A stretch of DNA of 64,000 nt from Candidatus Kaiserbacteria bacterium. GTDB lineage: Bacteria; Patescibacteriota; Minisyncoccia; Phycocordibacterales; UBA2100. Positions 47,238 to 56,085 of the stretch are shown piece by piece. The DNA lies in the NCBI GenBank assembly GCA_017134395.1, contig CP070993.1:608945-672944 (forward strand), given 5' to 3'. The translations under genes were made by a program, and so were the position numbers. Numbering within the stretch: position 1 is the stretch's first letter; each line of letters opens with the position of its first letter. The notes beneath the pieces are model-generated. The model had not been told where the DNA came from. It saw only the letters and a list, made by a program, of their open reading frames with translations, and did no database searches.

Positions 47238-47308
47238 TGTCGGATCGTCTAATGGTAGGACGACTGGTTCTGGTCCAGTTAATCTAGGTTCGAGTCCTAG
47301 TCCGACAG
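47238..47308 (+). tRNA. tRNA-Gln (anticodon CUG)
   Basis: UGUCGGA-UC-GUC-UAAUGGUAG-GAC-G-ACUGG-UUCUGGU-CCAGU-UAAU-CUAGG-UUCGAGU-CCUAG-UCCGACA-G; U1:A72 as in bacterial tRNA-Gln; its 3' end overlaps the recombinase gene stop. Confidence 0.85.
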
Positions 47309-48985
47309 CAGACTTGAATTAGTAGCATCTAATTCACCAGAATACCCTTGTTTTAACTGGGGTATTTTAGGTTCGAGCGTAGCATTTAGCGACACAGACA
47401 AATCATACGTACTTCGTATACCAGAAAGCGGAGAAGGTACGGAAACATTGAGTTTTTTGTCTTTTAGTGTGAGGTTCGAGCCGAGAATGGAAAGTACCTC
47501 GCGTTTGGTGTTATTGTCACCATTCTTAAACTTTTCACGTGCGTTTTGGGCAAAGTTGAGATAGTTATTAGCAACGCCAACCCAGTCAATTGCACGTTCA
47601 TGTAGTCCTTCCACATTCTTACGCACAACTCGCAACTCTTTCTCCACTTGTGCTCGTGTCTTGAGCAACTGTTCAGAAGTGATTTCATCACTTGCTCGCA
47701 TCATCACAAGGTTGTCCAACTTGTTTAGCAACTCAGTCTCTCTTTTTCTATTTTGTTGAGTTATGTGGTCCTGCTCGTGTATTTCATTACGGTGTATATA
47801 TTTCAGAGCTTCGACTGCCCATGCATAAAATTCAGTAGGTATTGATACTTTCTTTATGGACTCAGATATTTGATTTTCCAACACAGATTCCTCGATGTAT
47901 CTTTGCGAACATACTCCCTTCTTCTTGGTACAGCGGTAATAGGTCTTGTCGATGATGCTAGGTCTCTCCATTTCAGATACGTCTATGTGGCAGGCAGGGC
48001 ATTCGGTTTGAGTACGAATTGAGAACTTCTTTTTGCATTGAGTACATATAGCTTGCAACTTACGTTCTGCGGTCACTGCACAACCACACTCACCACAGGA
48101 TAAAGAAGATCGGAAGGGGAAGTCATACTTATTAACCTTTGTCGGGCGCCCATGCTTGCCCAGAAGCGTCTGTACGCGGTTGAACTCATCTTCTGTAATC
48201 AGTGCTTCGTGCTTGCCAAAGAAACGTTCCTTGTAACCTTCTTCACCATTCCAATCAAATACGCCAAAGTAAAATGGGTGAGTGAAAGTATTGTAAAAGG
48301 TATTTACTGAATAGGGCTTTCCACTTCTATTCCTTAGCCCCAACGAATCAGCCTCTCTTTTGATATCAGGTATAGAGTATGAACCTGTAAGCATCTTCTT
48401 CCAGAGAGATTTTACTATTTTGAAACGTTCTGCGTCCTTCTCTATCTCTTGGTCGCCCATGTTGTAGTCTTTTTTGTGTTTGTACCCCATGGGCAGGACT
48501 GACGCAGGATACCAACCACGCTTCGCCTTGTTCCGTTGACTTCGCTTCACGTCCACACTCAAGTCGTTCACGTATTGGGTAGACATACCAAGCTCAACCG
48601 CCATCATCAATACGTTGTCCCAAGGATTGTATTCCCGTGAGTAAGTTTGTAGGTGTTGTATAGTTCCTTCTTGGAGCATCCAACTGATTTGTCCGCCATC
48701 TACAGGGTTACGTGCAAGTCGGTTAATCTTCCAACACAAGATACCGTTTGCCTCTCCTTTTTGGATACGTCCAAGCATTTTGTTGAACTCAGGTCGTCCG
48801 CTAGGTGTTTTTGCGGATTTGGATTCGGTGATGGTTTCTATTACATTCAAATCCAAGTTCTCAGCTAGACGCATCATTTCAGAAGTTTGGTCTTCAATTG
48901 AAGCCATTTGCTTGTCCTCACTGTCGGTAGACTTTCGAACGTACAGTATGTATTTGAGATCTTTCTGTTTTGGGGAGGTCATCAT
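47297..48985 (-). CDS. large serine recombinase (resolvase/invertase catalytic domain, recombinase domain, zinc ribbon)
   Basis: N-terminal YILYVRKSTDSEDKQMASIEDQ with nucleophile Ser; central recombinase domain; CGECGC...C...CPAC zinc-ribbon; 562 aa. Confidence 0.85.
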   Translation of the reverse strand: MMTSPKQKDLKYILYVRKSTDSEDKQMASIEDQTSEMMRLAENLDLNVIETITESKSAKTPSGRPEFNKMLGRIQKGEANGILCWKINRLARNPVDGGQISWMLQEGTIQHLQTYSREYNPWDNVLMMAVELGMSTQYVNDLSVDVKRSQRNKAKRGWYPASVLPMGYKHKKDYNMGDQEIEKDAERFKIVKSLWKKMLTGSYSIPDIKREADSLGLRNRSGKPYSVNTFYNTFTHPFYFGVFDWNGEEGYKERFFGKHEALITEDEFNRVQTLLGKHGRPTKVNKYDFPFRSSLSCGECGCAVTAERKLQAICTQCKKKFSIRTQTECPACHIDVSEMERPSIIDKTYYRCTKKKGVCSQRYIEESVLENQISESIKKVSIPTEFYAWAVEALKYIHRNEIHEQDHITQQNRKRETELLNKLDNLVMMRASDEITSEQLLKTRAQVEKELRVVRKNVEGLHERAIDWVGVANNYLNFAQNAREKFKNGDNNTKREVLSILGSNLTLKDKKLNVSVPSPLSGIRSTYDLSVSLNATLEPKIPQLKQGYSGELDATNSSLLSD

Positions 48986-49012
48986 TTAAGTATAACTAAT
49001 TAAGACGGCAGT

Positions 49013-49249
49013 TTATTTAAAATTTAAGGGGATGTTGTTGATTAGAGCAACGACTCGTATCAACTTCAAGCCCTCTTCAAGTGCCTGTTCGTATGTAATG
49101 TTTTGGTCAAAGTGCTGTTTGTGTAGTTCTTGAAATTCAAGTATCTGTTCTTCTTCTAACATTGTTTTTGCTTTATAAAAAATTCGAAACCTTACTGCGT
49201 ATTCTTGTATAAAATTTCGTCTGTGAGAGTCGATTGTGCTTCCTTGCAT
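49013..49249 (-). CDS. hypothetical protein (78 aa), element cargo
   Basis: tight spacing with flanking genes. Confidence 0.45.
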   Translation of the reverse strand: MQGSTIDSHRRNFIQEYAVRFRIFYKAKTMLEEEQILEFQELHKQHFDQNITYEQALEEGLKLIRVVALINNIPLNFK

Positions 49250-49536
49250 TATGTCTCGACTTTCTCTTTTAAATCCTTCTGAGAGGATAAATGACTCTCG
49301 GATGTGTTGTCTTCACGCCTATTAGAAAGTTCATGGAGAAAGCGAACTATCTGGTTTGCTTCTTCCTTTGGATAATCCTCTATATCAACCAGTTTGTAAA
49401 ACCAATCCCGTATTGCTCTACGCGAGAATCCTTGGTATTTAGTTGCTTTGGCAAAGCAAGTATAGCTACTCCACCCAAGATTGTTTCTGTCGTTCTGCTC
49501 TTCGATTATTAGAAATTTCCTCTTTATTGATCGCAT
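49249..49536 (-). CDS. hypothetical protein (95 aa), element cargo
   Basis: start overlaps stop of upstream RHH ORF (translational coupling). Confidence 0.5.
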   Translation of the reverse strand: MRSIKRKFLIIEEQNDRNNLGWSSYTCFAKATKYQGFSRRAIRDWFYKLVDIEDYPKEEANQIVRFLHELSNRREDNTSESHLSSQKDLKEKVET

Positions 49537-49667
49537 GTTTTGAATTCCTTGCTAATTAAATTGGCTAATAGCTGAGACATAGTGGTACCAGATTGTGCTG
49601 CCTCGACTTTTAAAAGTTGGTGACACTCCACTGGTATACGCACTTGTTTGGTTAGTCGTTCTTTCAT
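49524..49667 (-). CDS. ribbon-helix-helix (CopG/Arc/MetJ-like) DNA-binding protein, 47 aa (not in ORF track)
   Basis: MKERLTKQVRIPVECHQLLKVEAAQSGTTMSQLLANLISKEFKTCDQ: beta-strand then two helices; SD AAGGAA 8 nt upstream; stop overlaps next gene start. Confidence 0.55.
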   Translation of the reverse strand: MKERLTKQVRIPVECHQLLKVEAAQSGTTMSQLLANLISKEFKTCDQ

Positions 49668-49950
49668 GTATAGATTCCTTATTTGGTAAATTTGTCGACC
49701 TTTATATCCCGCTCCCTTGTATATATTCCTCTCTTCCCTTCACTCCTACCTCCTGAATGGTCATCCCCCCGTAAGAATCTCGTCTTACTCATAGGTTGGT
49801 CGTAGGTTTCCACATGTGTGTCACTACTCTATTACTTCTTTCGAAGCATTCAGTATGGTTATCGCTCGGTTGAGCCGCTGTCTTTATATGCTCTTTTTGA
49901 GTCCGCATATAACACCAACGATGTGCTTCCAAGACTTAATGCATAAGCAT

Positions 49951-49975
49951 CAAAAAACGCCCCTGTGAGGGCGTT
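49951..49975. terminator. hairpin aacgcccc-tgtga-gggcgtt with U-run on minus strand (ends gene 50029-50703)
   Basis: 8-bp GC stem. Confidence 0.55.
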
Positions 49976-54969: not shown

Positions 54970-54980
54970 AAGATAGCAAA

Positions 54981-55412
54981 ATGAAGCACCACATGAAAAT
55001 ATCAACGGCAGTTTCACTTGTTCTTGCAGCTTTTGTTGGAGGGCTTTTGCTAGACTCGTCCATCTTTGGTCTAGGCGAAGCGGGATTCTCGAAGAAAGTG
55101 TCTTGTTCAAGTTTTAAGGAACAGGCAGAAAGTCGTATAAAGGACTACTACGCACCATCAGAAGTAGTAAGCTATACACCTGATGAGATTTTCTTCAGTA
55201 CAAGTAAAGAAACCTGTATAGCAGCATGGAGTGGTGACTGGTTAAACGAGAACGGTATGTTTAAGCAGGTTGCCATATTTGATGCGGTTAGTAATCGGGA
55301 TATATACTCAGATATGGTGTATCGTCCCTTTGTTAAGGAAAGTGAAGACATTGATAATTTCTATCGCCGAACTGTGAATAGGTACGATGAGCTGCTAGTA
55401 GAGTTAAGATAA
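54981..55412 (+). CDS. hypothetical secreted protein (143 aa)
   Basis: N-terminal signal-like hydrophobic segment. Confidence 0.5.
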   Translation: MKHHMKISTAVSLVLAAFVGGLLLDSSIFGLGEAGFSKKVSCSSFKEQAESRIKDYYAPSEVVSYTPDEIFFSTSKETCIAAWSGDWLNENGMFKQVAIFDAVSNRDIYSDMVYRPFVKESEDIDNFYRRTVNRYDELLVELR

Positions 55413-55464
55413 AATAGTAGTTCGAGCAATTTGCAGAAAAGTATTACAGGTGTAGATTTAGAGT

Positions 55465-55842
55465 ATGACAATTCAAGAAGCAGAAAATATTCTGAAGTCC
55501 TGGCAAGAATTTGTTGAATTTGCGGACAAATTAAGCAAGATTTCTATGTCGCTACCAGAGTCTTTATTACCATATCCGATTACGGCGCTAGAGGAGGCGG
55601 CGAATATTATCGCTAAAATGCACTTTGATTCTGGTGATAAAGAGACAGGCGAAATTGTACAAAACGGAGTGTTTGGATACCTTGTGTTCTTCAAAAGTGA
55701 TAAAGAGGCAATTGACGGTCTGCGCTCCAAATTGAACATGATGGAGGAAAGTTCAGAGCTGAAGGCAGCTATACTTAAAAATCTGAAGGAAGCTAAAATT
55801 TCATGGGAAGAACACAGAAGACTTAATTCTCAACTAAAATAG
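55465..55842 (+). CDS. hypothetical protein (125 aa)
   Basis: helical composition; last gene before the element's right end. Confidence 0.45.
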   Translation: MTIQEAENILKSWQEFVEFADKLSKISMSLPESLLPYPITALEEAANIIAKMHFDSGDKETGEIVQNGVFGYLVFFKSDKEAIDGLRSKLNMMEESSELKAAILKNLKEAKISWEEHRRLNSQLK

Positions 55843-55882
55843 TGGTTCGAACCTTTCTAAGTTCTGCCAGCTAGGCACAGAT

Positions 55883-55915
55883 AGCCCTGACGCGAACAGC
55901 GTTAGGGCTTTTCTG
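55883..55915. terminator. hairpin agccctgacgc-gaaca-gcgttagggct plus U-run in the element's right arm
   Basis: 11-bp stem with one G.U. Confidence 0.55.
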
Positions 55916-56085
55916 CTGCCTCTTTCGGGTTGGACTCGAAAAGAGCGAAATATATCTGACTGGAAGGAAGATTTGAGCGGCGGGGCTGCGTCGCTTAGTA
56001 TTTACGACTGAAAGGAGTACAATACTTAGCAAAGGTAGCCGAGTCCTAGTCCGACAGCCATCAATTTATACAAAAGATTAAATTT

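Follow-up and report, generated by a model that had tools for sequence, protein, structure and literature searches.

How does an island of genes come to lie in a bacterial tRNA gene, and what enzyme put it there? The question is raised by a 64-kb stretch of the genome of Candidatus Kaiserbacteria, a member of the Candidate Phyla Radiation (CPR), in which a gene for a large serine recombinase (LSR) ends inside a tRNA-Gln gene. CPR bacteria have tiny genomes, and we know of no well-described mobile elements in them. Within the stretch analysed (hereafter, the window), positions 47291-56058 are bounded by two copies of a 19-bp direct repeat, the first of which forms part of the tRNA. We conclude that this segment is, very probably, a small integrative genomic island of ~8.75 kb that was inserted at tRNA-Gln by its own LSR. 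What is new here is that a tRNA-integrating island, a known type of element, is driven by an unusual clade of LSRs and carries an orphan structured RNA, LOOT.

Boundaries, target tRNA and recombinase

Five features define the ends of the element:

47238..47309, plus strand: tRNA-Gln(CTG), the integration target (ARAGORN; Rfam tRNA, 59.8 bits at 47238-47308), whose last ~19 nt are the attL core
47291..47309, plus strand: direct repeat copy 1, the attL core, an exact 19-mer from T-loop base 3 to the base after the discriminator (+1)
47297..48985, minus strand: large serine recombinase of 562 amino acids (aa), the presumed integrase (Pfam Resolvase and Recombinase; PHROG 95)
55910..56039, no strand: non-coding arm adjoining attR; given how the repeats are placed, it would form the P arm of attP once the element is excised
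56040..56058, plus strand: direct repeat copy 2, the attR core, an exact 19-mer and putatively the displaced original 3' end of the tRNA

The 19-mer, CGAGTCCTAGTCCGACAGC, occurs on the plus strand of the window at 47291-47309 and 56040-56058 and nowhere else. A preliminary description of this DNA had reported a perfect two-copy repeat, and these indeed remain the sole copies in the 64 kb when up to three mismatches are allowed; shuffled sequences give a chance expectation of 0.00-0.01 matches. The first copy begins at T-loop base 3 (TTCGAGT) and takes in the 3' side of the T-stem (CCTAG), the 3' acceptor strand (TCCGACA), the discriminator G and the +1 base, and its assignment to the tRNA-Gln segment from T-loop to discriminator is confirmed by ARAGORN, by Rfam and by reading the cloverleaf. 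The LSR gene converges on the tRNA and overlaps it by 13 nt. Its product ends in ...L-L-S-D-stop. The TAG is read from the T-stem CCTAG in reverse complement, which puts the last four codons within both the tRNA and the repeat; the stop codon (47297-47299) is inside the tRNA, as had been noted.

Assignment of the enzyme to the large serine recombinases rests on two Pfam domains, Resolvase (PF00239; 58.1 bits against a cutoff of 23.3, E=1.4e-15) and, after this catalytic domain, Recombinase (PF07508; 42.7 bits against 21.1, E=7.3e-11). Zn_ribbon_recom (PF13408) falls below its cutoff (21.8 bits against 25.3, E=2.4e-4), and PHROG 95, annotated 'integrase', matches at 3e-61. An alignment of 25 homologues shows R17 and S19 of a YVRKST motif to be invariant, placing the serine nucleophile in the context Y-x-R-x-S-T, and eight Cys that fall at positions 297-359 never vary in the same alignment, with residues 380-475 beyond them forming a conserved region. 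The closest solved structures, at E ~1e-4, are catalytic-domain fragments and the A118 integrase (4kis/6dnw), the Recombinase domain matching the same region of the latter. NCBIfam matches to XisF and CcrB/CcrC are far below threshold (58 bits versus 900), no phage LSR in INPHARED exceeds 25% identity, and a single relative, at 31% identity, was present among 2.9 million IMG/VR contigs. Judged by sequence, the LSR appears distant from all characterised enzymes. Searches of the element detected no tyrosine integrase, phage structural gene or conjugation gene (Pfam, PHROGs, NCBIfam and PADLOC), no relaxase, coupling protein or type IV secretion system gene (Pfam and NCBIfam) and no other recombinase (Pfam, PHROGs and NCBIfam).

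We suggest that the LSR would insert a circular form of the element by site-specific recombination. The attP of this circle would duplicate the terminal ~19 nt of tRNA-Gln, and attB would be the T-arm and the 3' half of the acceptor in the chromosomal gene. Integration would rebuild an intact tRNA at attL, its 3' part now supplied by the element, and the displaced original 3' end would remain as the 19-bp repeat at attR. The crossover dinucleotide would be located near the dyad of the T-arm, with the sequence 3' of the crossover duplicated in attP, so that the tRNA is rebuilt. Because the LSR gene converges on the tRNA and its stop lies within the core, the open reading frame (ORF) would be intact in both the integrated and the excised states. 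One of the small conserved proteins of the element is probably the excision (directionality) factor.

Relatives of the recombinase and their tRNA targets

Homologues of the LSR number 1431 in the database, and the five closest of those with genomic context (66-76% identity) all end in a convergent tRNA-Gln, in three chromosomal contexts and with differing cargo. P0003 (76%, locus L001) ends 13 nt inside a convergent tRNA-Gln(TTG) beside a dnaX-like gene, and its cargo includes DUF4145 and a 3145-aa SpvB/RHS toxin. P0004 (68%, L002, GCA_002378745.1) ends inside tRNA-Gln(CTG) at the site syntenic to that of the window. The left flanks of these two loci share an exo/endo/phosphatase-family (EEP) protein (72% identity), VIT1 (68%), CTP synthase (88%) and FtsX (81%), whereas the cargo of L002, a type I restriction-modification (R-M) system and Fic, is unlike that of the window. 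R-M/Fic cargo is also found with P0007 (67%, L206-208), at a tRNA-Gln(TTG) beside dnaX, and with P0005 (66%, L209-211), at a tRNA-Gln(TTG) beside CTP synthase. Exact-protein queries with the window LSR, its database twin P0001 and the neighbouring EEP protein matched no contigs. Related LSRs at the same type of site, in differing contexts and with exchanged cargo, fit a mobile family, and comparison with these relatives at convergent tRNA-Gln genes supports the earlier proposal that the element is integrated into the 3' end of tRNA-Gln. The T-stem in L002 reads CCAAG, not CCTAG, which removes the in-frame TAG and lets the LSR ORF extend 61 nt into the tRNA; the same 61-nt overlap is seen in L209. 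Therefore, the C-terminus of the LSR is dictated by the sequence of its target tRNA.

Occupancy of these sites is sporadic. A scan with a degenerate core, one genome per species and fixed 8-kb blocks, which does not amount to a census of attL/attR pairs, found, in other species, at least 56 intact tRNA-Gln genes that share the 3' end of the window's gene, and an LSR overlapped none of them (0/56). One locus, L037 (Patescibacteria bacterium B86T1L10, JADFRL010000001.1, 591-5684), has two additional core copies downstream of its tRNA-Gln, at 982 and 5666. These copies bound a small GIY-YIG gene and a 4.7-kb block containing an ABC transporter and a 459-aa protein; a recombinase is absent, and the blocks look like integrase-less islands or decayed tandem insertions. 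The additional core copies imply that the tRNA-Gln site accumulates insertions.

Targeting of tRNA genes is not confined to this locus but characterises a large clade of LSRs. Scanning metagenomes provided 80 additional LSR loci at 37-57% identity, and 73 loci, including the window, L001 and L002, could be evaluated. In 40 of the 73 the LSR stop lies 9-88 nt inside a complete, convergent tRNA, the targets being Asn (19), Gln (7), His (5), Trp (3), Ala (3), Tyr (2) and Arg (1). Targets appear to switch among fairly close relatives, since both Gln and Tyr targeters occur among LSRs that are linked at 55% identity or more. Related recombinases with different, highly conserved natural targets are of interest for understanding how LSRs read their sites and possibly for LSR engineering.

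Six of the other 33 LSRs end at a 3' fragment of a tRNA that contains the T-arm. These loci are L052 (1860-3507), L144, L151, L160, L185 and L190, and the fragments consist of the T-arm and acceptor strand, sometimes with part of the anticodon arm. They could be junctions of tandem arrays, or attP sites with long tRNA homology.

All LSR loci were searched for repeats, first exact ones of at least 13 nt and then with up to two mismatches, although most elements exceed the 10-kb flank available. One further complete element was recovered: L147, of 10.4 kb, bounded by a 16-bp repeat (GAATCCCACCCCCGGA) in tRNA-Asn and with LOOT inside. As in the window, the repeat of L147 extends from within the T-loop to the 3' end of the acceptor. 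Crossover is thus probably in the T-loop, where the repeat begins in both complete elements, the two on which this placement is based; G57-A58 is the predicted position.

The closest named homologues, aligning over their full length at 45-49% identity, are from Flavobacteriia (Polaribacter cellanae, Lutibacter oricola and Dokdonia sp.). They belong to the same LSR clade, but they lie in regions resembling integrative and conjugative elements (TraG/TrwB, RadC, Dam methylase and Phage_rep_O), and no tRNA is present within 10 kb of them. LOOT was not found in the Polaribacter locus, the one of the three that was searched for it. On present sequences, the tRNA habit appears to belong to the uncultured/CPR branch of the clade. 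The locus L141 has a group I intron (12489-12733; Rfam, 66.8 bits) ~850 nt past the tRNA-His that its LSR relative overlaps, and a 15-nt repeat in the same locus is common to tRNA-His and a tRNA-Pro 8 kb away.

The element resembles several known systems, and differs from each of them. With the tRNA islands of tyrosine integrases (P4-like elements and those of the mycobacteriophage L5/BPs-type Int-Y) it shares the 3' end of a tRNA as target, a tRNA copy on the element that rebuilds the gene, a direct repeat at both ends, an integrase beside attL and variable cargo; the enzyme of the window, however, is a large serine recombinase. With phiC31, Bxb1, TP901-1 and A118/LI integrases it shares the order of resolvase catalytic domain and recombinase domain, followed by a putative Cys-rich zinc region and long helical region, and A118 integrase (4kis/6dnw) and the TP901-1 catalytic domain give weak sequence matches. 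These characterised serine integrases, in contrast, use a site in an ORF or intergenic region rather than a tRNA gene, and have four Cys where the clade of the window has eight invariant ones; the core of the window's family, at 16-19 bp and overlapped by the recombinase ORF, is a further difference. SCCmec is an island that CcrAB or CcrC places at the 3' end of rlmH/orfX, leaving the gene active and direct repeats behind. The likeness to SCCmec is that of a serine recombinase and a cargo-variable island at the 3' end of a conserved gene; the differences are a tRNA target, a single recombinase instead of a pair, and LOOT, which has no counterpart in SCCmec. The LSR is not itself a Ccr, given how far its CcrB/CcrC and XisF scores fall under the cutoffs. 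An LSR clade that ends in tRNA genes contradicts the generalisation that tyrosine integrases take tRNAs while serine integrases take ORFs with a core of a few bases.

We found no description of a tRNA-targeting LSR clade in the open-access literature, which is not proof of novelty. The main text of the LSR survey of Durrant et al. (PMC10083194) makes no mention of tRNA.

LOOT RNA, core genes and cargo

The interior of the element is organised as follows:

49013..49249, minus strand: family A small core protein, with a likely start at M30 (49162) and thus ~49 aa
49249..49536, minus strand: family B small core protein, 95 aa, with homologues in 8 loci and 58% identity in L001
49524..49667, minus strand: 47-aa ORF, a possible ribbon-helix-helix (RHH) regulator on sub-threshold Pfam matches
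50029..50703, minus strand: 224-aa putative regulator with a probable OmpR/PhoB-type winged-helix C-terminus
50704..50939, no strand: divergent control region with ATACGTACC/GTACC repeats and palindromes, from comparison of upstream regions across loci
50940..51112, plus strand: LOOT RNA, of which the RF03000 model covers 50968-51090, with a conserved 5' extension and a 3' tail beyond the model
51141..51772, plus strand: cargo ORFs of 145 and 65 aa, predicted to be membrane-anchored, with N-terminal or double hydrophobic segments
51831..53414, plus strand: 527-aa cargo protein with an N-terminal HEPN domain (Rx4-6H motif, four-helix HEPN fold)
53431..55842, plus strand: six more cargo ORFs (59, 134, 63, 251, 143 and 125 aa), three with N-terminal hydrophobic segments
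55883..55909, plus strand: hairpin resembling an intrinsic terminator (11-bp stem, then TTTCT) that closes the cargo operon

The core of the element family consists of the LSR, two small proteins, optional regulators of the RHH and winged helix-turn-helix types, and LOOT, whose transcription runs away from the core. The variable cargo operon follows LOOT at a distance of 11-77 nt; in the window it encodes the HEPN protein and small membrane or secreted proteins, and in relatives a type I R-M system with Fic, or an RHS/SpvB toxin. The family is thereby a compact carrier of defence and toxin genes (HEPN, type I R-M with Fic, RHS) in Candidatus Kaiserbacteria.

A repeat-rich region of 440 bp between core and cargo had been described as simply non-coding. 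It contains LOOT (RF03000), a conserved part of the family. LOOT is said to go back to Weinberg et al. in 2017. Rfam 14 describes it as a 'metagenomic-based RNA' and types it as a small RNA (sRNA). The match in the window scores 82.7 bits against a gathering score of 46.4, extends over model positions 1-121 of 121 and has the predicted helices, and L001 and L002 have above-threshold matches at the corresponding position. From these three sequences we built a covariance model, R1, which scores the window LOOT at 160 bits and finds LOOT in 15 LSR loci and in L206-208. Of ~120 control loci (0.94 Mb) that have the tRNA-Gln core without an LSR, none contained LOOT, and the sole match in the control set, L052, itself carries an LSR. 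The Rfam model found no LOOT in six other LSR loci, and L209 also lacks it. LOOT lies 1.7-5.3 kb upstream of the LSR start and is on the opposite strand in 13 of the 15 loci. In all 14 loci that could be evaluated, an ORF with an ATG start begins 11-77 nt after LOOT on the same strand; these counts describe LSR-bearing loci, the LOOT loci having been gathered through the LSR. The distance from the end of LOOT to the first cargo ATG in the window is 28 nt.

Covariation supports the structure. Across the 15 sequences 91.2% of cells are paired, compared with 66% in shuffles, none of 500 of which reached as high a value, and 35 of 44 pairs show compensatory change on both sides; slid controls gave 37-46%, and the fold has a z-score of -7.4. 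The 3' tail looks invariant and consists of CUGGUGGUGGGC and then U-rich sequence; it pairs with the loop CCCAUCAUCAG, and this tail helix, helix 5, is 93.8% paired in the 15 sequences with 6 of 11 pairs compensatory, in an alignment that was fitted to helices 1-4 and 6-7 and not to helix 5. Upstream of LOOT, a TATAAT box (50927-50932) stands ~7 nt ahead of a conserved ACAACTGAATA, and a TATAAT-like box with the conserved ACAACTGAATA recurs upstream of LOOT across loci. A consensus promoter scan of the control region gave no match.

In RNAfold predictions for many loci, the tail alternatively pairs with downstream sequence to form a hairpin just before the first cargo start. This region is 51091-51118 in the window, with equivalents in L152, L124, L176, L147 and L052. 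In a shuffle test the alternative hairpin was not significant except in L152. The alternative pairing in these modelled folds suggests a possible two-state switch. We also considered LOOT as a guide RNA for the att site, and rejected it on inspection: the similarity of the P4 hairpin to the core in the window is not shared by L001, despite the same target. Most likely, LOOT is a structured leader or an sRNA that gates expression of the cargo strand. Compared with the Rfam entry, LOOT is here found within LSR/tRNA islands, upstream of variable cargo, and has an additional 5' extension and a covarying 3' tail helix. A well-supported structured RNA thus gains a genomic context, between a recombination and regulation core and variable cargo.

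Core families were defined by an all-vs-all comparison of ORFs across the LOOT-positive loci. Family A homologues adjoin the LSR in 12 of these loci. Searches of Pfam, PDB, PADLOC and NCBIfam gave no match to the protein, which may be an accessory or directionality factor. Family B has no usable match in Pfam, PDB profiles, PADLOC or NCBIfam. The gene inventory of the preliminary description stands as to the nine plus-strand ORFs and the HEPN motif, while its RHH and Excalibur assignments correspond to sub-threshold matches and its winged helix to a weak CreB hit. For the 47-aa ORF, three sub-threshold Pfam matches agree (RHH_10, 0.0019; RHH_5, 0.014; Omega_Repress, 0.059), and a homologue is present in L052. 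The 224-aa protein weakly matches the NCBIfam CreB C-terminal region (E=0.001), and its C-terminal 90 aa match the 253-aa protein that occupies the corresponding position in L001 (E=2e-7).

Five of the nine cargo ORFs have an N-terminal hydrophobic segment. The first two, of 145 and 65 aa, have no family match in Pfam, PHROGs, NCBIfam or PADLOC. At its C-terminus the 134-aa protein is weakly Excalibur-like, below threshold, and its C-terminal 54 aa are 80% identical to a cargo ORF of L001. The 527-aa protein has both the Rx4-6H motif and the four-helix fold that characterise HEPN domains, and its homologues adjoin type I R-M, AAA_15/HNH, AIPR, Mrr and PDDEXK genes. A role as an RNase-type defence protein or toxin is our best guess, given that its homologues lie amid defence genes, and its distribution suggests that this uncharacterised family recurs in the defence islands of CPR genomes. 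Homologues in L212 (7001-13416), L213 and L214 (2155-11542) lie after HsdM-HsdS and before AAA_15 and HNH, or after AIPR and PDDEXK.

Other histories of the island

Several observations weigh against integration of a mobile island by its LSR. The GC content between the repeats, 0.39-0.44, equals that of the flanks, and the only dip, to 0.34, is at 56.0-57.0 kb, directly outside the right repeat. The preliminary description had proposed looking for the attP junction of an excised circle and for an empty site. A search of IMG/VR with the 19-mer found no such junction, and a reconstructed attB (the tRNA end joined to the right flank) had no match in JGI metagenomes. L085 (Paceibacterota NORP311) shares synteny with the window (EEP 63%, CTP synthase 84%, FtsX 79%), and in it the tRNA is followed by a hairpin, with the LSR absent; its contig stops 124 bp past the tRNA, and the exact attB was not found. 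With neither a circular form nor an exact empty site, current mobility is a matter of inference. The right junction of L002 was not recovered, and hence the right boundary rests on the repeat. Characterised LSRs need just 2 bp of identity and normally leave no long repeat, and we infer the reason for a 19-bp core from the need to rebuild the tRNA. Finally, LOOT is present in only about one third of the LSR relatives with enough upstream sequence. Still, neither of the two findings that the preliminary description had named as grounds for doubt came to light: the gene block did not turn up in relatives without the repeat, and the repeat did not prove to be a wider genomic one.

Integration of an 8.75-kb unit remains the reading we prefer. 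A broader one we put forward tentatively, as a possibility that we would not yet favour. The island may belong to an undescribed family of mobile islands in CPR and uncultured bacteria, in which an LSR clade uses the symmetric T-arm as attB and has switched among at least seven tRNA species, and of which LOOT is a functional part. LOOT may then be a riboswitch-like or protein-responsive leader of the cargo that is tied to the state of the element, or an RNA cofactor of the switch between integration and excision. If this is correct, LOOT would have its first biological context, and the LSRs would gain a naturally retargetable, tRNA-directed branch.

Among other explanations, the one that survives best, though we think it unlikely, is that the mobile unit is larger or composite. 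In this case 56059-57500 would be an older, second insertion of a tandem array, and the ancestral flank would lie near the SpoU methylase gene at 57617. The GC of 0.34 at 56.0-57.0 kb, a weak GIY-YIG match in a 283-aa ORF, the tandem repeat-bounded blocks at the tRNA-Gln of L037 (one of them with only a GIY-YIG gene) and the six LSR loci ending at tRNA fragments, as tandem arrays would give, are all in keeping with such a history. However, the window has no third copy of the repeat, even with three mismatches, and no relative with the window's right flank was recovered.

It is more doubtful still that the island is old and fixed, having been inserted once by the LSR and then lost the capacity for excision, its recombinase domesticated or decaying. 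That neither circular form nor empty site was detected in IMG/VR or JGI metagenomes agrees with this, as do a GC equal to that of the host and the lack of a recognisable directionality factor in database searches. The 19-bp repeats are nevertheless perfect, the full-length LSR keeps every invariant catalytic and Cys residue, and the occurrence of close LSRs in three chromosomal contexts with exchanged cargo points to recent mobility of the family.

An origin as a prophage remnant or phage satellite we consider highly improbable. The LSR matches PHROG 95 'integrase' and two cargo ORFs have very weak matches to phage families, but PHROGs gave no match for the other genes of the element, the best phage LSR is only 25% identical, the clade is nearly absent from IMG/VR, and the element is just 8.8 kb long. 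The idea that a lost tyrosine integrase, or a duplication, made the repeat and that the LSR is a passenger or resolvase can practically be set aside: tyrosine integrases are classically recognised by long direct repeats derived from tRNAs (Hatfull 2022, PMC9262239), yet no tyrosine recombinase domain is present in the element in Pfam, PHROGs or NCBIfam searches, and LSR stops within convergent tRNAs at 40 independent loci and seven tRNA species would be unexpected of a passenger.

Around the island, which we continue to regard as an LSR-inserted unit, the left flank contains genes for FtsX, CTP synthase, VIT1 and the EEP protein, and the right flank has two ORFs without known function followed by SpoU methylase (57617) and MsrAB. 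The two ORFs, of 283 and 135 aa, occupy the low-GC (0.34) segment at 56086-57494, outside the right repeat; the former has a TTG start and its GIY-YIG match is at E=0.006. This segment may be the leftover of an earlier insertion at the same tRNA. The order Thr-Thr-(RF-1)-FtsE-FtsX-CTP synthase-tRNA-Gln is kept in L002 and partly across Patescibacteria, so the tRNA-Gln site can easily be located in relatives. Further upstream of the element, the window contains a cluster of tRNA genes (Met x2, Asp, Thr x2) at 35785-40668 and a tmRNA gene at 1157-1548.

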